A stretch of DNA of 64,000 nucleotides from NCBI RefSeq assembly GCF_003790525.1, contig NZ_CP033635.1, one strand, 5' to 3'. Position 1 is the first letter of the stretch, and the number at the start of each line of letters is the position of its first letter. Shown here piece by piece: positions 3,365 through 57,749 of the stretch. The notes beneath the pieces are model-generated. The model was not told where the DNA came from. It made no database searches and saw only the letters and a list, made by a program, of their open reading frames with translations. Position numbers and translations under genes: made by a program. The stretch is from Escherichia coli (GTDB lineage: Bacteria > Pseudomonadota > Gammaproteobacteria > Enterobacterales > Enterobacteriaceae).

Positions 3365-5660
<2,296 letters not shown>

Positions 5661-5873
5661 ATGTAGATCAAATTGATCGTAATTAAGCTTTTTTGATTAT
5701 GTCCGAATTCGGACAAATGCTTTATAAAAAAGGATTTTAGCTTCATATCCTTCAAGTAATGAGGGAGAAAACAAGGCTGACAACCTTATTTTCCCGCCCT
5801 CATTTCGAGGCAGCATTTTGTGCTCTGTTTAAAATTTGTGATCACTGTGTGATTTTCACAAAAGCCACACTAT

Positions 5874-6767
<894 letters not shown>

Positions 6768-6804
6768 TTACCTCATCAATCGCTTGTAGTTATATGTTGT
6801 GTTG

Positions 6805-6840
6805 TGAACATCTATCCATTTAGACGTCCAGATGTAAAGA
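6805..6840 (-). promoter_or_regulatory. metF operator region with MetJ met-box-like repeats
   Basis: tagacgtccagatgt contains adjacent 8-mers resembling the AGACGTCT met box, upstream of metF. Confidence 0.45.
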
Positions 6841-7145
6841 TGAAGGAAAAGCCGAGGGGCGTCAACCGAAAAATGACCAATGATGGTGAGGAAAAATCAG
6901 GGAAGTTGAAAAAAACTCATCTTAATTAGAGGCGATAAAAGATTTCTCTATAGCGCAATCCACCTCGCACGTTTTGACTGATATTCTGACAACACAGCGA
7001 CACCTGGGCTTATTCGAAAAACAACGTCCTGCCACCGGATGGTGATGCTAAGGCATCTGATTCGGCCTGCGCCCTCGCGTAGGCCGAATACTGGATCTGC
7101 AAAATCAACTGGTAACAAACAGATGAATCAACTCAATACGTACTT

Positions 7146-8705
7146 TTACTTGATATCTTTCACGCGCATACCGTTGATCTGTTCATCCGTGATGGTGTTA
7201 CCCGCTTTGAAGTAATCAACCACGGCGTGATAAACGTAATAACCGCCCGTTGTGTTACGCGCTTTCCCTTCGGTAAAGGCGGTAAAACCATCTCCACCAT
7301 CAGCAAGGAAACTCTGAGTAGCAATGTGGTAAATCGTCGCATCTTCAATGGGTTTGCCATTCAGAGTCAGCGTGATTACCCGCTGACCAACCGGCTTACT
7401 GCTGTCGTACTTCATTTCCAGGCCTTTCGATACCTGTAAAACGCCATTACTCAAACTTGCGCCGTGTTCCATCAAACTGCGTAATTGTTTACCCGTGAGA
7501 TCCATCGTCACCAGTTCGTTGGGGAACGGGAAGGTACTGATGACGCCACCCATCGTAATTGCACCCGCCGGGATCTCATTGCGAATCCCGCCAGAGTTGG
7601 TTAACGCCAACTGGGTATTTTTACCCGCCGCTGCCAGCAAAGCGTCTGCCGCCAGGTTCCCGAGAGAAGCTGATTCACCATAGGCACGTTTTAGTTCAAC
7701 CGGCGATTGCGCCACCGTTTGTTGCACGACTTCATCCAGCTTTTTGTTCCAACTATCAATCACCTGTTTCGTTTGCGGATCGGGCTTCCACTCATCGGCG
7801 TAAAGGGTTTTAAGCTCGAAGTTTTTCACCGTAAAAGTGTGCGGCTTCTCTTTGTAGTCGAGAACCAGTTTACCGACATCAATCCCGCCGCTGTCAGTGG
7901 AGAGGATTAACGTATTGCCGACTTTAATCGGTTCCGGCGTACCCACATGTGCATGCCCGGTGATCAAAATATCCAACCCTTTCACCTGACTTGCCGTCTG
8001 AATATCTTTATCCAGTGCGCGACGCACATCCGTGCCTCCCATACTGGACTGGCGGGCCGGAACACCTTCGTGGATCAGGGCGACGGTTAGATCAACCTTG
8101 CCTTTGAGTTCATCGATATAACGTTGTAGCCATTTAATTTCATCACGCGCCTCAATACCCACTCGCGTTGCCGCAGATACCGTATCATTAAAGGCAAATA
8201 CACCGTGCAAACCAATCACGCCAATTTTCACGCCGTCTTTTTCAATGATGGTATAGGGCTTATCCCAGAATGATTTACTGCTGTTCTGATAAAAAACATT
8301 ACCCTGCACAATCGGGAATTTTGCCTGACTCAACTGTAATAACGTATTGTCCCAGCCGTGATCAAATTCATGATTACCTATAGTGACCGCATCGAATGGC
8401 ATGGTATTCATAATATCGATAATCGCCTTGCCTTTAGTCAGGCTGCTGATATACGGTCCGGTAAAATAGTCACCCGCATCAAAAAACCAGGTCGCTTTGT
8501 TTTTAGCTTTTTCTTGTTTAACAAGCGTAGTGATATTTGCCCAGCCGCCAATATCCCGTTTACCGTCAGCAATCCACGGCACTTTATAAGGCTCTACATG
8601 TGCATGGAGGTCGTTGGTATAAATGATGGTGACATCTTTGGCGCAAGCCCAAAACGGCAGTGTTAATGCGATACCCGCAGCAAGCATTTTAATTTTCATA
8701 AACAA
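7146..8705 (-). CDS. Secreted bifunctional metallophosphatase/5'-nucleotidase (UshA/YfkN family) paralog A
   Basis: Signal peptide then [33 protein letters not shown] metallophosphatase motifs and a C-terminal 5'-nucleotidase substrate-binding region. Confidence 0.85.
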
Positions 8706-8831
8706 TCCCTTCCAGTGAGATAAAGGATTGCTACATTACGTTCTGAAAGGCTTTTTTATGTGAGAATACTCACATCCAGAGGCGATAACTGTAGGACAAA
8801 ATCAACGACCTTATGAAATCGTTGGTGATAT

Positions 8832-9959
8832 ATGTCAAATCTGTTTGCGATTAATGTCTGTAAAACGTTCGGTTGTCGAAATTTGGGATTGGCCTCATCG
8901 GAAGATTACAGTTGGCCAGACTATAAACTGGGTTTTCCGGCACTGCACTGCCAGGCATGCGGAAGTTACCCCCCTTTGTTTGATGAACAACAATTTCGTG
9001 ACTGGTTGTCAGTTCACATGACTGCGTGTGCCATAGAAACAGGGCATTTTTGTCCATCATGCTATTGTAAAGAAAAGATTTTTTATGGCCACAACCCGCA
9101 GGGAACACAACGCGTTCAATGCCGTTCATGCAAAAAAGTCTGGACTCCGAAACAGCAGCCAGCAAGAGAAATTACGTATCCCCAGTCCATTGAAACCGTT
9201 CAACTGTTCATGCCCTTTCAAGGAGCCAGCGCAGTACAAAAGCTCTATGTTTTAGTCAGTCTTGACGCCACTCGTGGCAACATCCTTCATCTCTCCACGA
9301 ATTATACGCAACATCAGACAGGAGACAGTCTGCGGTACAGTTACAGAGGCAATACAGAACCAACTGAGCACCATAGCGATATTGTGCAGAGGGTAGATAT
9401 GCGTGAAGCGCAATTCTTGCGCCGGAGCCAGTTCGATGAAATTCAGTATGGCAGTGCTGTGCTCAAGCGCAACGGCAAGGGAGCCATACTACGCCCGGTT
9501 ATCACGGCACACGGGCATTTCAGAATACTGAAAATCCGCTTTCCACATGTCAAAACGCATATCATTTCACACGAATGTTTTCTGAGAGGCGCAATTATTA
9601 CAGCCTGGGCAGATCAGTTCCGCCAACAACAAGGCGAACTTTGGTTCGTAGAAGAAGAAATCAGCGACCGTAACGCTGATATTCCCTGGCATTTTCAGGG
9701 AACGACATACCATGGTTGGTGGCAAAATCAGTGGCAACGCTGGGGGCAGGGGAATAACAGCAAGATGGTCTGCCTGCTCACAGGAGTCTCCTTAGAAAGG
9801 GGCGCAAATGTTTCTCTGGCAACCAGTCGTTGCTTTATCACATGGCTGACAGACCAACACGACTTTACCCAAAGCGCGTTATTATCCGCAGGTCGCGTAA
9901 CGAAAATGCTGACCTCACTGGCGTTAAAATACAATGAATCGCTCACTCCATCTTGTTAG
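8832..9959 (+). CDS. Hypothetical Cys-rich protein with putative N-terminal zinc-ribbon
   Basis: 375-aa ORF; N-terminus has paired CxxC motifs (CQAC, CPSC, CRSC); no family confidently recognised. Confidence 0.55.
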   Translation: MSNLFAINVCKTFGCRNLGLASSEDYSWPDYKLGFPALHCQACGSYPPLFDEQQFRDWLSVHMTACAIETGHFCPSCYCKEKIFYGHNPQGTQRVQCRSCKKVWTPKQQPAREITYPQSIETVQLFMPFQGASAVQKLYVLVSLDATRGNILHLSTNYTQHQTGDSLRYSYRGNTEPTEHHSDIVQRVDMREAQFLRRSQFDEIQYGSAVLKRNGKGAILRPVITAHGHFRILKIRFPHVKTHIISHECFLRGAIITAWADQFRQQQGELWFVEEEISDRNADIPWHFQGTTYHGWWQNQWQRWGQGNNSKMVCLLTGVSLERGANVSLATSRCFITWLTDQHDFTQSALLSAGRVTKMLTSLALKYNESLTPSC

Positions 9960-40764: not shown

Positions 40765-41667
40765 TTATGAAAGCATAGACCGTTTACCCTCCCTGGGTAC
40801 GACGGAACAGGGGTCCTGATGGATAATCACATCCGATCCCGGAAAACGCCGTAAAATAGCCTGCTCTACCTGATCCGCCACCATATGTGCCTGAACCAAA
40901 GGCAGAGAGTCTTCCATTTCCAAATGAATCTGAATAAAGCGGGTCGGCCCTGACTGCCGCGTGCGAAGATCGTGAGCGCCGCTAACACCCGGCCAGGAAG
41001 TCACGATATCAATAATTTCTTGCCGTTCTTCATCAGGCAATGCGCGATCCAGTAATGACTGTACCGCCTCATATCCCATGCGTAACGCGCTATATAAAAT
41101 ATAGATGCCGATTCCCAATGCAAACAGAGCATCGGCGCGATGCCAGCCGTACCAGGACAACCCCAGCGCCAGCAGAATTGCGCCGTTCATCATAACATCA
41201 GACTGGTAATGTAGCATATCAGCCCGCACCGCCTGGCTTTGCGTCCGGCGCACCACCCACCGCTGAAACGAGACAAGGATAATCGTACAAATTAGCGCCA
41301 CAATTGTCACGATAACCCCGACGCCTGGATCTGTCATCGGTGTTGGAGATACCAGATGTTGAATACCCGTCAAAAACAGGAATAGTGCCGAACCGGAGAT
41401 AAACATACTTTGCGCCAGCGCCGCGAGGGACTCAGCTTTACCGTGACCAAACGAGTGATTATCGTCGGCAGGTTGCAGGGAATATCGCACCACCAGTAAA
41501 TTCGTCAACGACGCGCCGATATCCACCAGCGAATCCACCAGCGCGGCGAGAATACTCACCGACCCGGTATACCACCATGCAAAAATTTTAATCAGCAATA
41601 GCAGCGAAGCCATCGCCGTCGCAGCAATCGCCGCCCGACTGACCAGCCGTCCATAAGATTGATTCAT
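40765..41667 (-). CDS. fieF: Cation-diffusion-facilitator Fe/Zn efflux transporter
   Basis: Start trimmed to [42 protein letters not shown]; CDF-family features. Confidence 0.9.
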
Positions 41668-41748
41668 AAATACTCCCGCTATCAACTGACGGTAGTATAA
41701 CGGAAGCAAATCATCTGCAATGCATTAAGCAGCAAGCAAATTGAGGAT

Positions 41749-41891: not shown

Positions 41892-43317
41892 TAATGCCGA
41901 TCAGTTAAGGATCAGTTGACCGATCCAGTGGCTGTGTAAGAATCCGGAAACGCTCACTTGTTTCCGGATTTTTTTATGCACATTGGACAGGCTCTTGATC
42001 TGGTATCCCGTTACGATTCTCTGCGTAACCCACTGACTTCTCTGGGGGATTACCTCGACCCCGAACTCATCTCTCGTTGCCTTGCCGAATCAGGTACTGT
42101 AACGCTACGCAAGCGCCGTCTTCCCCTCGAAATGATGGTCTGGTGTATTGTTGGCATGGCGCTTGAGCGTAAAGAACCTCTTCACCAGATTGTGAATCGC
42201 CTGGACATCATGCTGCCGGGCAATCGCCCCTTCGTTGCCCCCAGTGCCGTTATTCAGGCCCGCCAGCGCCTGGGAAGTGAGGCTGTCCGCCGCGTGTTCA
42301 CGAAAACAGCGCAGCTCTGGCATAACGCCACGCCGCATCCGCACTGGTGCGGCCTGACCCTGCTGGCCATCGATGGTGTGTTCTGGCGCACACCGGATAC
42401 ACCAGAGAACGATGCAGCCTTCCCCCGCCAGACACATGCCGGGAACCCGGCGCTCTACCCGCAGGTCAAAATGGTCTGCCAGATGGAACTGACCAGCCAT
42501 CTGCTGACGGCTGCAGCCTTCGGCACGATGAAGAACAGCGAAAATGAGCTTGCTGAGCAACTTATAGAACAAACCGGCGATAACACTCTGACGTTAATGG
42601 ATAAAGGTTATTACTCACTGGGACTGTTAAATGCCTGGAGCCTGGCGGGAGAACACCGCCACTGGATGATACCTCTCAGAAAGGGAGCGCAATATGAAGA
42701 GATCAGAAAACTGGGTAAAGGCGATCATCTGGTGAAGCTGAAAACCAGCCCGCAGGCACGAAAAAAGTGGCCGGGACTGGGAAATGAAGTGACAGCCCGC
42801 CTGCTGACCGTGACGCGCAAAGGAAAAGTCTGCCATCTGCTGACGTCGATGACGGACGCCATGCGCTTCCCCGGAGGAGAAATGGCGGATCTGTACAGTC
42901 ATCGCTGGGAAATCGAACTGGGATACAGGGAGATAAAACAGACGATGCAACTGAGCAGGCTGACGCTGAGAAGTAAAAAACCGGAGCTTGTGGAGCAAGA
43001 GCTGTGGGGTGTCTTACTGGCTTATAATCTGGTGAGATATCAGATGATTAAAATGGCGGAATATCTGAAAGGTTACTGGCCGAATCAACTGAGTTTCTCA
43101 GAATCATGTGGAATGGTGATGAGAATGCTGATGACATTGCAGGGCGCTTCACCGGGACGTATACCGGAGCTGATGCGCGATCTTGCAAGTATGGGACAAC
43201 TTGTGAAATTACCGACAAGAAGGGAAAGGGCCTTCCCGAGAGTGGTAAAGGAGAGGCCCTGGAAATACCCCACAGCCCCGAAAAAGAGCCAGTCAGTTGC
43301 TTAACTGACTGGCATTA
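41892..43317 (+). mobile_element. Insertion sequence IS4 (1426 bp, apparently intact)
   Basis: Terminal inverted repeats taatgccgatcagttaagg (left) and gcttaactgactggcatta (right, reverse complement taatgccagtcagttaagc); single transposase ORF; 13-bp direct repeats on both sides. Confidence 0.9.
41976..43304 (+). CDS. insG: IS4 transposase
   Basis: 442-aa translation [40 protein letters not shown]... matches IS4 transposase as I recall it. Confidence 0.9.
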
Positions 43318-48754: not shown

Positions 48755-49945
48755 TTAATTGCTGTTAACCGAGGTGACCAGATTTGCCAGGTATTTATCG
48801 GTAATACGCTGGCGCAGGGTCAGGTTTTCAAGAGGAGGCACCGGGGTATAGTCGTAGTCGATATACAGTTTTCCGGCCTTAAGGGTTTCCGCATCGTTGG
48901 ATTCTTCGCTGAACCAGCAGGTCGCATCCACGATATAGCCGTTTGTTTTCAGCTCACGGAATTTGGCATTGATGCCGTCAACGATGTCGCGAATCAGCGT
49001 TGCGGTGATGGGCTTGTCCACCGCCCACATGTGCGCCTCAGCCATCGTGTCGGCCAGCACCTGCGCGGTGCGGGTGTAGTTTTCAAAGAGGAACAGCGGG
49101 TCATCAGAGCAGGTACGGTTACCCCAGAATCGGAAACCGTCGCGGCGAATCAGCGTAGTGACGCCTGACTCGTTAAGCAGGTCAGCATCGGTGCCGGACT
49201 CCTGCAAATCCCAGAATACAGATGCGCTGATGCCGGTAACACCGTTCACCCCGACATTGGACAGCGTTTTATGCCAGCCCTGCTCCTGGTCGATTCTGGC
49301 ACGCAGACCCAGCGCACGGGCGGTGGCATACGCGGTGGCGGTGGTGCTGGTGACCGTATCCCATGCGAGGAAATCCGGCCAGATGACCATCAGCTCACGC
49401 TGGCTGAAATTCTGGCGGTAGGCTTTCACCTCGGAAATGGTTTTACAGCCCCATGCGCTGATATACCCGAAAGCGCGCAGCTTCTGACAGACTGATGCCA
49501 GTGCAACAGCCACCTCTTTGGTATCCAGCCCCGGCACGCCGAGAATACGCGGTTTAACACCGGTTACCGACTCCGCCGCCAGCAGGGCTTTCAGTCCGGT
49601 GTACTGACCGTTTTCGTCGGTGGTGCCGATGATATTGGAAACGGTCTGCGCAAGTTTCGTTTCCTCGTCGTCGCCGGTGCCGTCTTCCACACGCACGACA
49701 ACGGTGACCGGTTTTGACTGGTCGGCGATGGCCTGCAACGATGCCGCCAGCGTGCCTTTTTTACCGGCCTTTGCAATTGCGCTCTGCACATTGGTAATCA
49801 GCACTGGTTTATTGAGGGGGAAGATTTCCGCATCCGCATCGCTGGCCGTGCAGACCATGCCAACAATGGCGGTGGATACGGTGGAAATGACGCGGGTGCC
49901 GTCGTTAATCTCCAGCACCTGCACGCCGTGATGATAGTCACTCAT
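48755..49945 (-). CDS. FI: Contractile tail sheath protein (gpFI)
   Basis: 396 aa; MSDYHHGVQVLEINDGTRVISTVSTAIVGMV...; position before FII. Confidence 0.9.
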   Translation of the reverse strand: MSDYHHGVQVLEINDGTRVISTVSTAIVGMVCTASDADAEIFPLNKPVLITNVQSAIAKAGKKGTLAASLQAIADQSKPVTVVVRVEDGTGDDEETKLAQTVSNIIGTTDENGQYTGLKALLAAESVTGVKPRILGVPGLDTKEVAVALASVCQKLRAFGYISAWGCKTISEVKAYRQNFSQRELMVIWPDFLAWDTVTSTTATAYATARALGLRARIDQEQGWHKTLSNVGVNGVTGISASVFWDLQESGTDADLLNESGVTTLIRRDGFRFWGNRTCSDDPLFLFENYTRTAQVLADTMAEAHMWAVDKPITATLIRDIVDGINAKFRELKTNGYIVDATCWFSEESNDAETLKAGKLYIDYDYTPVPPLENLTLRQRITDKYLANLVTSVNSN

Positions 49946-50041: not shown

Positions 50042-50072
50042 AAAGAAAAGGCAGGCAATTCGCCCGCCTGTC
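50042..50072 (-). terminator. Putative terminator downstream of the G/FI cargo gene
   Basis: Minus strand caggcgggcgaattgcctgcc followed by ttttctttatc. Confidence 0.45.
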
Positions 50073-50264
50073 CTGATTTGTACTCACTCATTTTCCGACT
50101 GACAATTTACATAGCCAAAACGCTATCAAATCTGACAGTCTGCTTTGAGCGAGGAGCAGAGGTTAGTTTTAGTTAACCAAAATGATAAAAAGCAGTAGAA
50201 AAATCCGCTCATTACGTTATGGTTATAAGCCGCACATAATCATCCGAGCCAAATCCTCTTGATT

Positions 50265-51164
50265 TCAAAGAATTAGCACTTGCTCTTCACTAGAAACTAT
50301 GGTTCTGACTTCACGCTCAAATATTGGATCCATTATCATTTTTCTATTTGTTGGAATAGTAAATTTACCGAGTACCATGACAATGCTACTCAACGGAAAT
50401 AATTTTGGAGTAACATTTCCTAATTGAATCGTAGGATATATATTAAAGCCCCCTTTTATCCTCATTGGCGAACCTTCAATGAAGTGTCGATAATTAAATT
50501 TCGCCATAGGGATTCTCGCCACATGCACTTTCATAATTACAGCAACCTGAGCTATTTTTACTTTCTGGAGGTAAGTTGACAATCGTTCTAACTGCGTTGT
50601 TTCATAGAAAAAATCAGACCACGTTACAGTACTTGTTCCAGTAACAATTTTTATGCTGTTTCTCTTGTTGGGGTGAGCTTTTCCATATTCATAGATCTCC
50701 CGTAAGCTATCCATGTTCTTCACATAAGGGGCTTTCCGACCTCTCTTGACATAAACGCGGTCTGTAGTATCAGAAGGTGGATTTGCCTGCATAGCTGCAG
50801 CTTTTCTGCTTAATTTAGAGATATCATCTTCATCGAGTATATGTATACGGAATATATTATTACCTGTGGCAAGCGCACGGCTGATATCATGACTGGAATC
50901 ACTTGCATAAATTGTATTCAATCCTGAAGTTCCATACTGGCATAATTTGTCATGCGTGAAATTTTTTTCCAGTCTAAAGAAGGCGGGGATATGCAAGGTT
51001 TTATTAAAACTCCGACGAATATGGCTTTTGACATACACCAAATGAGCAGAGCAATTTGGGTCAGGACATTTGAGTGGATAGGGATTAACACTATAATTAA
51101 AAGTATTTACATTTACTAAAATCTGATTGTTATCAATAGCCTGAGTTATACGAATACCACTCAT
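50265..51164 (-). CDS. AT-rich cargo (moron) protein at the P2 Z/fun position between G and FI; candidate phage-exclusion protein
   Basis: 299-aa ORF with markedly lower GC than flanking tail genes; occupies the slot where P2 carries the T5-exclusion gene Z/fun; no family recognised. Confidence 0.6.
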   Translation of the reverse strand: MSGIRITQAIDNNQILVNVNTFNYSVNPYPLKCPDPNCSAHLVYVKSHIRRSFNKTLHIPAFFRLEKNFTHDKLCQYGTSGLNTIYASDSSHDISRALATGNNIFRIHILDEDDISKLSRKAAAMQANPPSDTTDRVYVKRGRKAPYVKNMDSLREIYEYGKAHPNKRNSIKIVTGTSTVTWSDFFYETTQLERLSTYLQKVKIAQVAVIMKVHVARIPMAKFNYRHFIEGSPMRIKGGFNIYPTIQLGNVTPKLFPLSSIVMVLGKFTIPTNRKMIMDPIFEREVRTIVSSEEQVLIL

Positions 51165-51379
51165 TACTCCTCCATAAAGATAGGCGCAAGCATTTAGTAA
51201 TAAACCATTAACATGCCGAGATCATACCCGATCATTGAAATGTAAACACTCCCCTAAGACGGCTGCTGGCATAATATTTTATGACATCAGCAATGCCCAC
51301 CTCTGGCACAGAGTGGACTGTCAGATTAGGCTTTACTCTGTGCCATAGATATGTAAGCCCACACTAGAGCTCATACAAC

Positions 51380-51907
51380 TTATTGCGGCATTTCCGGCCA
51401 TTCAGGATTTGCAGGATCCACACGACTGACCAGAACACTATAGCGTTCCCATGCCTCCAGTCGACTACGCTCCTCATCTGTTGCCATATTCAGCCTGACC
51501 GCGCGCTCCAGCGGCAAAATCACGGATTCAGCTTCGGAAAGCAAAGCTGCCTTATGTAATTCCGCCAGTTTCTGCTGTTCGTCTGCCGTATAAATCCGCT
51601 TAATCACGGCACCATCCTTAAACATCCATTTACCTGAGTCGTCAGCACGTCGGTTGGAGGTAATATCAGGAACCTCAACAACGCTAAAACCTTCAGGATT
51701 AAGCGTTGAAGCATCTCTGGTGATAGCGACAATAATATTATTTTCATCGTAAACAATCTTTATTGTGTCTGGCTGAAAGTTCTTCACTTCCTCATACCAG
51801 TTTTTTCCGTCCTCAGAGTAAAGCCAGATAACTCCGTGTTTCTTTGTTAACTCATACTGTTCCAGTGTTTTAGCGTTACCCGCTTTTATGTTCTTTAAGT
51901 GCATCAT
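51380..51907 (-). CDS. G: Tail fiber assembly protein (gpG)
   Basis: 175 aa immediately downstream of the tail fiber gene. Confidence 0.85.
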
Positions 51908-51908
51908 A

Positions 51909-53930
51909 TTAAACGCTCGCTACATTATACCAGGTGCCATTTATATACTTTTGAACGGGTCTGTAATAAACGCCCGCTATATTATCGGCAGAGTTGGACC
52001 CTGTATCCTGAACATTAATACCAGACAATACATGACCTGACGGGCACTGGAAATTCCATGTTTGCCAGTTGTTCACTCCATAATATTGCTGTGACCCAAG
52101 TCGAACATCTTTCACATATCTGGAATCAAAATTGCCATAGTTGCCAGGAATAACTTGCGAGCCACAAAGCCAGTTACCGTTATTATCCATGTACGCCTGA
52201 CCATCGGTGCCATTGGCTGTCCTTGAGTTATTAATCATGTAGATGCCAAATTGCTTGTTCCCCAGTCCACCTATCATGAACTTGCGGTCAGCGTGATTCT
52301 GGCGAAGCAACGCCTGAGCGCTATCAGTGTTAACTATATTTTTCCCAAAGATAGCGTTGTTATCGCGCATCTGAATCCACATACCATTACTGCTGTTAAT
52401 AGCAAAACGGTCTGAAAGCGTCTCCCCTGAAACATTAAGGCCACGCCCCATCGAAACAGCGCCAGTAGCGTTATTAATCCATAATGGCCTTAATCCGTTA
52501 TAAGTCCCCATGTTGTCACCGGAGTTTGTCAACATGAAGTATGTATTTGAACCATCATTACGAATAAAGAATCCGTAATTACCATAAGCAATACGTAGGC
52601 CGTTTGCTGATTTTGATATGACTTCGCCATTTACAATGGCATTGACAAGAACATACAAAGCATCCCATTTAAGATTCATCAGGTCTTTTGTTGTAGTACT
52701 CTGGCGGCTTCTCCATTTGAAATATTCATTGCCGTTATCCCCCGTTTCAAACCACATGAATGAATCAGTGTCACCATCGGCATCATTTTTAAATCCAATC
52801 TTCGCCCAGTCAGTATTTCGAATCCAGGCAAGGATTGAGTCGTTTTCAAAAGTAAGTCCACCGGACAAGGTATCGCCATTTTTTTGCACGGCGTTCCCGG
52901 CTCGGTTTACCGTTTCCTGTAAACCGAGATATTCGATAACGGCGGCAACGGTCGATTTAGCCAGAATATCCCGCCCGACTTTTGTCAGGGTTGCCAAGCT
53001 GGCAACATCATTCCCAATAAAATACGGAAACCTGTCTGCCGCAGTAGCAAGCCCCGCCAGTGCCGTCAGGGTGGCATCTTTCGGTTGCTTACCCGCAAGC
53101 GCATTAGTCATGGTGGTAGCAAAATTCGGGTCATTGCCCAGCGCCGCCGCCAGCTCGTTCAGCGTATTCAGTGCGTCAGGCGACGAGTCTACAAGGGCGG
53201 CAATCGCGGCCATAACGAAAGCCGTGTTTGCGATCTGAGTATTATTCGTTCCCTGTCGCGCAGTTGGCGTCGTTGGCGTTCCGGTCAGTGCAGGGCTGTT
53301 TAATGGCGCTTTCTTGTTCGTTTCATCCATTACCGTCTTAACGGCTTTCGGCGTTGCAGCCAGTGTTTCAGACGTGCTGTTGGTCGCACTGCTTAACTGA
53401 GTAAAACCTTTTGCGGTCAGCGAGGCGTCAGGGTGACGTCGTGACTGTTCATGTTCTGCAATTTTGTCATCAACGTAATCCTGCGTCGCCATCACCGTTG
53501 TGGTGTCGATGGTCAGATCCACTGAGGCTACACTGCTGACGATAATGACCATGCGGCAGGTCTGCGAACGTCCTGAGCCTTCGGCAAGGGCTGGCTTATA
53601 ACTTTCGGCCATGTTCGCCACGGCAATTAACGTTCCCGCATCATCGTACAGGCCAAGCTCACGCATCCAGAAACCGCCCACCTCCGGCGGAATAACCAGC
53701 TCTGCGATAATATAATTACTGTTTCGTTTGTCCTGGCTGATTTTGTTCAGCGCATGTCGCCAGACTTCGTGGATAAGCCCGGTCTGTCCGGCATCCGGGA
53801 CAGGCAATTTACCACCGCCATCCCCGACGGCCATCGTGGTAATGTTGACCTTCCGCCCTCCCGGCGCGGTTGCCGCTGCCAGCTTTGCTGCACCGGCAGT
53901 GGTGATAACGGTTTTGAATTTTGTGCTCAT
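51909..53930 (-). CDS. H: Tail fiber protein (gpH)
   Basis: 673 aa; N-terminus [41 protein letters not shown]... Confidence 0.9.
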
Positions 53931-55376: not shown

Positions 55377-55724
55377 TCAACTCACAGGGATGGTTAACGA
55401 AAGTGGCTGGCCGGTGTCGTTGTGCTGACCGGTTAACGTGACCGTCATTCGCCCGTCAAAACTGCGCGCCGTGGTGACGGATGACAGGGTGACGCGGGGT
55501 TCCCATTTCAGCACTGCCATGTAACAGGCGACCTTAATCTGCAACTCAAGCGCCGGGGTCTGCGGCTGGTCAATCATTGACGCCAGCAACGAGCCGTAAT
55601 CACGACGCATCACCCGTGAGCCGACGGGGGTACGCAGGATATCGCCGATACTCTGGCTGATATGCTCAAGGTCAGTGACAGTCAGGCCATCACTGCGATT
55701 CATTCCGAGATAACGCGCAGTCAT
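55377..55724 (-). CDS. W: Baseplate protein (gpW)
   Basis: 115 aa; position between V and J. Confidence 0.85.
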   Translation of the reverse strand: MTARYLGMNRSDGLTVTDLEHISQSIGDILRTPVGSRVMRRDYGSLLASMIDQPQTPALELQIKVACYMAVLKWEPRVTLSSVTTARSFDGRMTVTLTGQHNDTGQPLSLTIPVS

Positions 55725-56356
55725 AGAGGTCCCCCGGTTGTGCCGCCGCTGTCGCCGGGGTGTTTATGGGTATGCAGTACCTTACCGTTTGATGAGAGCT
55801 CACCGCCGGTGTGTTCAATGTTGCCGCGCATCGTCCCGCCCTTCTGCACTTCCAGCGTGCCGGTAATCAGCCTGTTGGTGCAGACCACCTCCGGTGTGTC
55901 CAGGGTGATGCGGGTTGATGCTTTCACCATGACCACCGGCACCGTGGCAGTAACAGAATCAGAAGCCGTCACGCTGGCCGTTTTAACTCCGCTTACCGTG
56001 AGCGCGCTGGTTTCAGGTTCATACTCAATCACCGCCCCGTCAGGGAAACGGATATGCAGGGCATCCGCCGACGCAGACGGCGCGGGGTTATCGCCGGAAT
56101 AAATCCCCGGCAGAACGAACGCCGTGTCGAGTTCACCACCCACGGCCAGAATCAGCACCTGTTCCCCCACGGAAGGTGCCCACCATGTGCGCGAACGCCC
56201 GGCGCGATGGGTCAGCCACTGAAGCCAGTCGGTGCACATGCCGCCGGTCTGCACACGGCAGCGACCGGCATTAAGGTCGGTTTCGACGATAATGCCGGTG
56301 CGGATCATGTTGCGCAGTGCGCGCGCGAGTTCCTGAATATTTGCGAGAGTGTTCAT
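55721..56356 (-). CDS. V: Baseplate spike/assembly protein (gpV)
   Basis: Start trimmed to MNTLANIQELARALRNMIRTGIIVETDLNAGRCRVQTGG (CAT at 56354-56356). Confidence 0.85.
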   Translation of the reverse strand: MNTLANIQELARALRNMIRTGIIVETDLNAGRCRVQTGGMCTDWLQWLTHRAGRSRTWWAPSVGEQVLILAVGGELDTAFVLPGIYSGDNPAPSASADALHIRFPDGAVIEYEPETSALTVSGVKTASVTASDSVTATVPVVMVKASTRITLDTPEVVCTNRLITGTLEVQKGGTMRGNIEHTGGELSSNGKVLHTHKHPGDSGGTTGGPL

Positions 56357-56439
56357 GCGTGTGAGATTGCACAATATATAAAAGTTATGCTATCTGGATT
56401 CATTTGTAGAACGACCATACAACATTCGAGGAGAGCGTA

Positions 56440-57225
56440 ATGTTCAGTGATAATGTGACTAATGCGTGGTGGTTTATCTCTTTGTATCTATTTTTATTAA
56501 TAGCATTAACATTTGTTACCTTTGGTAAAAGTAATCTTATGAGGTTTATTGCACATCATTTCAATCTTGAGTATTCAGACAGAAAGTTAAAAATGCTCGA
56601 CAAAAAATGGCGCGACATTCAACTATTTAAAATAATTAACGGAATCAATGTATCAGGCATCGAAGATGTGAGAATGATACAGCAGGGGCTGATTGATGGA
56701 AAACTAAAAACATCGTATTTTTTCCTTACTCGCTTCTGGGGTGACATAACAAAACCACCACACATAATTAAAACAACAATTGTAATTCTGGCCAGTATTA
56801 TTTATATTCTCTTCGCATGTTATATACACAATGAACAATCCGCTATAGTAAGGGATGCCATAGGTATACCATATAAAAATATGATGTACTATGTTTATAG
56901 TGACAAAGTTCTTTTATCCTTCAAAAATAAAACGGTTGAATTTAATAAAACTTATAGCCTTGCCGATTGCAAGAGTCTGCAAAACGTATTTATAAAAGAC
57001 ACACTTCCCGAGATCGCCTGCAATAAGCTCTTACAGCTAAACAAGGAGGACTCCGAATGGTTAAGTCAGGAGATTAAAGATAATAACAGCCACAGAAAAA
57101 CATTATTAATAATATCCCTAACCTATTTCATTTCAGGTCTGCTTATATTCCTGTCATATACAAAATTCCTTTACGCCAATAAGAAGGTTTTAGAATACAA
57201 AGCATCAAATAAAAACCACTCATAA
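56440..57225 (+). CDS. AT-rich cargo (moron) membrane protein at the P2 orf30 position between S and V, opposite strand to the late operon
   Basis: 261 aa, about three predicted TM helices, very AT-rich, divergent from V; no family recognised. Confidence 0.6.
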   Translation: MFSDNVTNAWWFISLYLFLLIALTFVTFGKSNLMRFIAHHFNLEYSDRKLKMLDKKWRDIQLFKIINGINVSGIEDVRMIQQGLIDGKLKTSYFFLTRFWGDITKPPHIIKTTIVILASIIYILFACYIHNEQSAIVRDAIGIPYKNMMYYVYSDKVLLSFKNKTVEFNKTYSLADCKSLQNVFIKDTLPEIACNKLLQLNKEDSEWLSQEIKDNNSHRKTLLIISLTYFISGLLIFLSYTKFLYANKKVLEYKASNKNHS

Positions 57226-57296: not shown

Positions 57297-57749
57297 CTAA
57301 CGCTCAAGGTGAGCCAGGATAATCTCTTCAATCATCTGCACATCCTCACCGGTAAAGCCGAGCAGAGGACGCGCCGGATAATCAATTTTCTTACCGTCTT
57401 TCCGGTTTTCTTCCGACAGACCGAACTGATGCACACTGGCGATTTTCGGTGACTTCCCGCCGTAAAACTCCATTGATGCCTGTTCCGGGCTGGCGCGGAT
57501 ATGCAAAAAACGACTGGTGATAAGTTTCGCAAACATTTTTCGCTTAACACGACCGGTCTTTTTTCTGGCGCTCTGCTGCTGGCGTGGCGCGTAGGGTGTG
57601 CCGTCCGGAGCTTTCTGTGCCATCACCCGACGCTGCTGACTCTGCCGCAGGCGTTTCGCCAGTTCGGCACTCAGTCGCCGACGCCCTGACGGTGACAGCG
57701 ATTCAATCAGTCCGGTCAGCCGGTCTTCAAAACGCTTAAACTCATTCAT
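57297..57749 (-). CDS. S: Tail completion protein (gpS)
   Basis: 150 aa; position after R. Confidence 0.85.
   Translation of the reverse strand: MNEFKRFEDRLTGLIESLSPSGRRRLSAELAKRLRQSQQRRVMAQKAPDGTPYAPRQQQSARKKTGRVKRKMFAKLITSRFLHIRASPEQASMEFYGGKSPKIASVHQFGLSEENRKDGKKIDYPARPLLGFTGEDVQMIEEIILAHLER

Follow-up and report, generated by a model that had tools for sequence, protein, structure and literature searches.

A swapped cassette in the Z/fun slot of a P2-like prophage

We analysed a 64,000-nt window of Escherichia coli contig NZ_CP033635.1 (assembly GCF_003790525.1), to which all coordinates refer unless stated otherwise, and in which a P2-like prophage carries an accessory, or cargo, gene between two of its tail genes. 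The cargo gene is an open reading frame (ORF) on the minus strand (50265..51164) that begins with ATG and encodes a protein of 299 aa, about 34 kDa, with an isoelectric point (pI) of 9.8. The gene order of the prophage on that strand is D-U-T-E-FII-FI-[cargo]-G-H-I-J-W-V, and the cargo gene is co-oriented with both of its neighbors, the tail-fiber assembly gene G (51380..51907, minus strand; 87.7% nt identity to P2 G, identified by the annotation of E. coli SMS-3-5) and the tail sheath gene FI (48755..49945, minus strand; 95% nt identity to P2 FI, identified by annotation). The ORF list and the profile of guanine-plus-cytosine (GC) content agreed with an earlier note on this DNA, which had singled out an AT-rich 299-aa ORF between G and FI: the GC content of the ORF is 0.37, with 300-nt windows ranging from 0.35 to 0.42, versus 0.55–0.61 in FI and the tail genes. 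The intergenic regions, which the note had given as about 215 bp and about 320 bp, measure 215 bp on its upstream side and 319 bp on its downstream side.

Alignment with the reference P2 genome (NC_001895) by blastn showed that the matches stop at position 50164 of the window and restart at 51304. The intervening swapped cassette (50165..51303; 1,139 bp, GC about 0.37), as delimited by blastn and the GC profile, has no homology to reference P2 and stands in place of P2 15350–17428, which is the 2,079-bp fun(Z) cassette. As the cassette replaces that of fun(Z) between matching flanks, the cargo gene lies in the Z/fun slot, the position that the earlier note had proposed.

Comparisons at the sequence level confirmed that the cargo gene is real and excluded two readings of it. 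The first, raised as a caveat in the earlier note, was that the gene is no more than an allelic form of Z/fun, which in P2 excludes T5, as its location between G and FI would allow. P2 Fun(Z) (NP_046777), which confers T5 exclusion and sensitivity to fluorodeoxyuridine, is likewise encoded by a non-essential, AT-rich cassette in this hotspot; however, it is 528 aa long and antisense to the tail operons, whereas the cargo protein is 299 aa and its gene is on the G/FI strand. The best BLASTP match between the two proteins had E = 3.6 over 31 residues, the two cassettes have no DNA homology by blastn, and the probability that the genes are allelic is vanishingly small. The same is true of the second reading, that of a chance ORF or decaying remnant in AT-rich spacer DNA, which the AT-richness of the gene and its lack of an annotated function might suggest. 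The ratios of non-synonymous to synonymous substitution rates (dN/dS) against relatives at 88, 74 and 65% identity were 0.11, 0.14 and 0.22, respectively, and therefore indicate purifying selection. In addition, the 299-aa length is kept in relatives down to 65% identity, the family comprises at least 152 clusters, the fold of the protein is predicted with confidence, and 114 of the 116 E. coli copies are intact (see below).

Predicted expression signals of the cargo gene

The cargo gene has a Shine-Dalgarno sequence, GGAGG, read from the sequence 4 nt before its ATG (51169..51173, minus strand). A promoter scan identified a sigma-70 promoter-like site, TGGGCA-17-TATTAT (51271..51299, minus strand), about 105 nt upstream of the ATG, which is a consensus match only, at 9 of 12 positions. 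About 195 nt past the stop codon, the terminator scan found a strong intrinsic terminator (50049..50069, minus strand; 9-bp stem with six G-C pairs and a U-run; fold z = -3.8), consistent with the terminator-like hairpin that had been noticed downstream of the ORF. This terminator belongs to the backbone that is common with P2, the homology to which begins at 50164.

On the other side, downstream of G, there is a perfect inverted repeat of 10 bp, GGCACAGAGT...ACTCTGTGCC, around a loop of 20 nt (51294..51333, minus strand), which is located exactly at the junction of backbone and cassette. Its predicted RNA fold is weak (centroid z = -1.8) and, since it lacks a U-tract, it is not an obvious terminator; it may be the mark of a recombination junction or a regulatory site. 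The scan detected no terminator between G and the cargo ORF, so that, judging from the sequence, read-through into the cargo gene from the late V operon is possible. The earlier description of a stand-alone gene holds in that there is no translational coupling to the tail genes, but it needs to be qualified by the co-orientation with G and FI and by this possible read-through. An Rfam search of the flanks for RNA elements gave nothing meaningful.

Occurrence of the gene in phages and in E. coli

The cargo cassette is 100% identical at the nucleotide level in the phage record OU784549/NC_070904 ("Peduovirus P2"), in which the gene product is gp22, "hypothetical". That record (OU784549.1/NC_070904.1; 33,562 bp) bears the cargo cassette instead of fun(Z) and is therefore, at this locus, not the classical P2 of NC_001895. 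The 2-kb segment from G to FI is also present in Yersinia phage HQ103 (97% identity) and in phage Wphi (95.5% identity), whose orf44 product (gp44) is 99.7% identical to the cargo protein. These three were the only distinct phages that carried the gene among 50,697 phage records. The cargo protein matches PHROG 7195 (unknown function) over its full length and is identical to the RefSeq entry WP_000014361.1, which is annotated as hypothetical. Wphi orf44, PHROG 7195 and WP_000014361.1 thus represent the same gene in the same G-FI slot, all of them unannotated in function. The earlier note had called the function of the gene undescribed, and this has to be divided: the sequence was already known as Wphi orf44 and PHROG 7195, but it belongs to no described protein family. 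WP_000014361.1 was found in no paper, nor in the supplements of a 2026 preprint on P2/P4 hotspots (10.64898/2026.02.27.708500), and a literature search on Wphi and orf44 gave repressor and Cox papers only.

Copies with at least 99% identity were identified in 116 of 5,426 complete E. coli genomes, always annotated as "hypothetical", and both the G and FI flanks were present in all 116 carriers. An IS3 element is annotated inside the matched segment in two of these genomes. As P2-type sheath genes occur in about 2,020 places in 1,720 complete E. coli genomes, the cassette fills approximately 6% of Z/fun slots.

A widespread and undescribed protein family

A word-indexed search with the cargo protein returned 12 clusters only, all from Enterobacterales, with identities of at least 65% and nearly all 299 aa long. 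A hidden Markov model (HMM) built from the alignment of these 12 clusters found at least 152 clusters (counted as representatives at 50% identity, E <= 1e-3), mostly of 295–330 aa. Matches in the AlphaFold database (AFDB) placed members in Gamma-, Beta- and Alphaproteobacteria, Campylobacterota, Bacillota, Actinomycetota and Bacteroidota, and all of them were named "uncharacterized" except one that was labelled CoiA-like. The AT-richness of the gene is kept in the relatives at 88, 74 and 65% identity (GC 0.33–0.41), which come from a metagenomic phage contig, Serratia and Proteus.

The earlier note could not assign the protein to any known defense family, and the database searches agree with it. 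Pfam gave no match for the cargo protein even at E <= 10 and no consistent family in 133 members, and neither the cargo protein nor these members had a helix-turn-helix or other known regulator domain. Eight longer members likewise gave nothing consistent with Pfam and no informative domain fusions; the only strong match, that of one long member to NeuB/SAF, looks like an artifact of gene fusion. There was no NCBIfam match for the cargo protein, and two of ten relatives matched far below the cut-off only. Searches of the PDB with the cargo protein, by sequence and by profile, found nothing. PADLOC-DB v2.0.0, which holds no systems described after 2023, gave no families at E <= 1 for the cargo protein, and among ten relatives there were isolated weak matches in three, each in a single member and none recurring (ThsB TIR-like, E = 3e-4; REase_II, E = 1e-5; MTase_II, E = 0.04). 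A known defense family was accordingly rejected as the identity of the protein. The family to which it belongs is undescribed, widespread and structurally well defined.

Protein anatomy and predicted fold

Conservation was assessed in an alignment of 133 family members, and the same alignment proved decisive for structure prediction. AlphaFold2 (AF2) run with the 12 close sequences produced an unusable model (predicted local distance difference test score, pLDDT, 51), and with the 133-sequence alignment a confident one (pLDDT 93; predicted template-modelling score 0.87). The model and the column statistics together divide the protein into a conserved N-terminal two-thirds (residues 1–203; 50556..51164, minus strand) and a C-terminal beta-barrel with OB-fold strand topology (residues 204–299; 50268..50555, minus strand), as modelled for the C-terminal 95 residues. 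The barrel is the most variable part of the family, as most of the distant profile matches cover only positions 1 to about 200, and Q295 is the sole conserved residue within it. No internal repeat or duplication was detected in the cargo protein.

The N-terminal part contains a putative zinc-ribbon module (residues ~30–78; 50931..51077, minus strand), whose candidate ligands are C33, C38, H71 and C75. H71 and C75 are present in 133 of 133 members and C33 and C38 in 131, and in the AF2 model this C-x4-C ... H-x3-C set lies alongside four short beta-strands (residues 41–65), with a conserved F63-R64-L65 strand within the module. Four conserved Cys/His ligands on short beta-hairpins are what would be expected of a zinc ribbon or treble clef, and on the basis of this conservation and the model the set is likely a zinc ribbon. 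The suggestion in the earlier note that Cys pairs near the N-terminus may form a small metal-binding element is therefore strengthened by the near-invariance of these positions, and H71 would be added to C33, C38 and C75. The other strongly conserved residues of the protein are mostly basic or aromatic (R50, R64, R106, Y147, W182 and F185), with S90 and Q295 in addition.

The predicted fold of the N-terminal core appears to be of the thermonuclease-like, OB type, and the subfamily borne by P2-like phages has a motif, F105-R106-x-H108-x-x-D111-x-D113-D114, that invites comparison with staphylococcal nuclease (SNase). In the cargo protein this stretch, F105-R106-I-H-I-L-D111-E-D113-D114, mirrors F34-R35-L-L-L-V-D40-T-P-E43 of SNase, and it is exactly the stretch that hhalign selects when the family is aligned to SNase. 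The hhalign probability was only 0.9%, which is not significant, and no member matched the Pfam SNase family (PF00565); SNase homology was therefore rejected at the level of sequence. D111 and D114 are confined to the close subfamily and are not kept in distant members. Indeed, no acidic residue is conserved family-wide, the best position being E188, which is D or E in 74% of the 133 members. Of the SNase catalytic set (Arg35, Arg87, Glu43, Asp21 and Asp40), the arginines thus have conserved counterparts and the acids do not, and the predicted fold does not establish an active nuclease.

Other proteins with related architectures differ from the cargo protein in several ways. The OB-fold domains of SNases and thermonucleases have no sequence-level relation to the family, and the cargo protein is predicted to contain, beyond such a domain, a zinc ribbon and another OB barrel. 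OB modules that bear zinc are found in the MCM N-terminal domain, MCM10, DBD-C of RPA70 and the OB folds of BRCA2; these have no sequence similarity to the cargo protein, whose gene has no ATPase or helicase partner and belongs to bacterial mobile elements. The N-terminus of CoiA has a Cys...Cys...His...Cys pattern like that of the cargo protein, and one AFDB family member bears the CoiA-like name. However, there was no CoiA Pfam match among the 133 members and the family has no conserved PD-(D/E)xK residues.

Genomic neighborhoods of the relatives

About 11 informative neighborhoods of relatives were obtained, a sample that is small and was not drawn at random. The relative with 88% identity is on a viral contig of lambdoid type, where it lies downstream of replication genes (O-like and P-like) and of genes for a methyltransferase and an HNH protein. 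The 74% relative, in Serratia, lies in an integrase island in which a type I HsdR gene precedes it by two genes, and the 65% relative, in Proteus, adjoins a colicin-type DNase gene and its immunity gene. Among the less similar relatives, that with 40% identity directly follows the gene for an AbiTii protein near UmuDC, that with 38% identity (Photorhabdus) lies one transposase gene after Gabija GajA/GajB, and that with 33% identity comes after the integrase where a P2/186-like prophage ends, a gene for a GmrSD_N protein being two genes downstream. One more distant relative is between a type II restriction-modification (R-M) pair and a reverse transcriptase/phosphoribosyltransferase (RT/PRTase) pair in a serine-recombinase element, another adjoins a RelE/helix-turn-helix pair and is about 7 kb from an RT-trypsin gene, and another is near an integrase. 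Two further distant relatives are on conjugative elements, next to relaxase/ParB_N or TraG/PrgI/sortase genes.

All of these contexts are on mobile or variable DNA, and six of the approximately 11 neighborhoods contain R-M, Gabija, AbiTii, GmrSD, RT/PRTase or toxin-antitoxin genes, mostly within three genes of the family member. Within this sample, therefore, the family recurs beside defense genes or in mobile hotspots of unrelated genomes, as is characteristic of defense-island and hotspot cargo. There was no conserved partner gene, and the genes downstream of three relatives were unrelated to each other and to the cargo gene. As the adjoining genes differ each time, the gene travels alone.

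Several unannotated genes encoding proteins of 333–495 aa flank the family members near the GmrSD_N and AbiTii genes (locus L008, positions 7010–9051 of its own sequence; locus L012, positions 4481–6926 and 7996–8997) and may be further defense candidates.

A candidate phage-exclusion gene

Previous studies have linked this slot with defense. The fun locus was reported to be the second defense-enriched hotspot of P2 and to have held three of the validated PD- systems, although the text does not name which ones (Vassallo et al. 2022, PMC9519451); the analysis by Rousset et al. (2022, PMC9122126) was confined to the old/tin hotspot. More recently, six of eight randomly chosen P4 hotspot loci of unknown function were found to protect against phage, and an antiviral signal was predicted for 15–32% of unknown P2 hotspot proteins (10.64898/2026.02.27.708500). 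The cargo gene resembles the validated fun-hotspot systems in being small, promoter-bearing cargo of the same hotspot, and differs from them in that its product had no PADLOC match and that none of the weak matches in its relatives was to a PD- model.

Based on these considerations, we favor, at a little short of an even chance, the reading that the gene is a self-contained mobile accessory gene (moron) in the Z/fun hotspot, the most likely role of which would be the single-protein exclusion of other phages or mobile DNA by way of nucleic acid. What points to phage exclusion is the position of the gene in the hotspot and the location of its relatives beside defense genes, and the indication is accordingly one of context. 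The reading is consistent with the swapping of the cassette in a documented defense hotspot, its constant G-FI position in 116 E. coli genomes, purifying selection, and the varied mobile and defense contexts in which the family occurs with no partner. It is also consistent with the conservation of the Cys2-His-Cys ligands and of R50, R64, R106, Y147, W182 and F185, and with the high pI of the protein.

A mechanism can be proposed from these properties. The protein would be a basic one, with a Cys2-His-Cys zinc ribbon set in the thermonuclease-like/OB-type fold of its conserved N-terminal core and, after this core, the variable C-terminal OB barrel. The arginine- and aromatic-rich zinc/OB core may bind phage nucleic acid, either single-stranded or replication-intermediate DNA, or RNA, and the subfamily borne by P2-like phages, with its SNase-like FR-x4-D-x2-D motif, might also cleave it. 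The divergent C-terminal OB domain would be the specificity element that sets what is recognized. A further and more doubtful step, which we nevertheless consider a real possibility, is that the gene is the founder of an undescribed and widespread family of single-protein anti-phage factors that combine a zinc ribbon in an SNase-like/OB core with a variable OB sensor barrel. Such factors would act stoichiometrically, by binding or sequestering either a nucleic-acid intermediate of the phage or one of its single-strand-binding or replication factors; this mode is proposed rather than a standard enzymatic effector because there are no conserved catalytic acids.

Several observations weigh against phage exclusion. 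An accession search of the literature and of the supplements of one preprint yielded no phenotype for the cargo gene or for any homologue, and the cargo protein had no PADLOC match, with the matches in three of ten relatives being isolated and weak. An enzymatic effector is unsupported because no acidic residue is conserved throughout the family, and the resemblance to SNase is at the level of the fold only. The Z/fun hotspot itself is of mixed purpose, and holds tail-fiber swaps and invertases as well as defense-like genes (iLund4u preprint, 10.1101/2024.10.15.618418). The co-orientation of the gene with the late tail operons, and the lack of a detected terminator after G, would suit a function in the lytic cycle equally well. 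Finally, guilt by association is drawn here from the approximately 11 unsystematically sampled neighborhoods.

Of the alternative functions, that of an active SNase-type nuclease fares best, although we consider it unlikely. The protein could act as a toxin in abortive infection or as a nuclease of the nutritional or competence type, and this overlaps with the favored reading, the difference being whether nucleic acid is cleaved or only bound. It is countered by the loss of the acidic positions beyond the close subfamily and by the hhalign and Pfam results. In addition, no gene for an antitoxin or immunity protein accompanies it, and a signal peptide was not noted in its product.

Next, with a low probability, is a counter-defense or establishment factor for the element itself, for example a DNA-binding shield against host nucleases or restriction that is expressed with late or leading genes. 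Co-orientation with the V and F late operons, the absence of a detected terminator between G and the ORF, and the two distant relatives beside relaxase/ParB_N or inside conjugative transfer regions would all fit such a factor, as would an OB/zinc architecture that lacks conserved catalytic acids. However, several relatives are in chromosomal islands by R-M, Gabija or Abi genes and not in entry-region sets, the cassette has its own promoter-like site and a strong Shine-Dalgarno sequence, and the P2 slot is classically one for lysogenic conversion.

The latter use of the slot leads to the least probable of these functions, a gene for lysogenic conversion or regulation that has no part in phage conflict, such as a zinc-finger nucleic-acid-binding regulator that alters host physiology, which we regard as improbable. 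Zinc ribbons and OB modules are common in regulators and in RNA- and DNA-binding proteins, and cargo other than defense, including toxins and partition systems, is also present in P2 hotspots (PMC9122126). Against this, the distribution of the family is patchy and crosses phyla, its members are always on mobile or variable DNA with recurrent defense neighbors, and the Pfam scans found no known regulator domain.

The cargo gene is, in our assessment, a good and inexpensive candidate for phage challenge. About one in three complete E. coli genomes contains a P2-like prophage, new immune systems have come repeatedly from the two hotspots of these prophages, and the family is covered by no domain or defense database. 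If the gene were protective, it would represent a compact defense family whose members, of about 300 aa, have a zinc/OB architecture and might act non-enzymatically, and it would provide a phenotype for Wphi orf44, which has been unannotated since that genome was sequenced. If it were not, it would be a useful negative example for guilt-by-hotspot inference.

Other features of the prophage and its kin

Next to the cargo slot, the region 51550–52900 of the window, which comprises the part of H encoding the C-terminus and the part of G encoding the N-terminus, has a low GC content (0.39–0.47). G is less similar to its P2 counterpart than FI (87.7% versus 95% identity), and H is 71–79% identical in relatives with the same cargo. 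From its sequence, this region looks like a swapped receptor-binding module.

The prophage has a second AT-rich cargo ORF (56440–57225, plus strand; 261 aa; GC 0.31–0.34 versus about 0.58 in its flanks), which runs antisense to the tail genes, between a virion-morphogenesis gene (57297–57749) and the baseplate gene V (55721–56374), a position that we take to be that of P2 orf30. Its product matches PHROG 2407 (unknown function) and had no PADLOC match.

At the ogr end, the prophage is abutted by an ORF for a 448-aa IS4-family transposase (41958–43304, plus strand), just beyond which is fieF (40765–41709, minus strand), an arrangement that is as annotated in E. coli SMS-3-5. In the same prophage of SMS-3-5, the old/tin hotspot (NC_010498.1 4415184–4418671) has genes for a DNA cytosine methyltransferase, a 345-aa hypothetical protein and a protein with a ParB N-terminal domain in place of old and tin.
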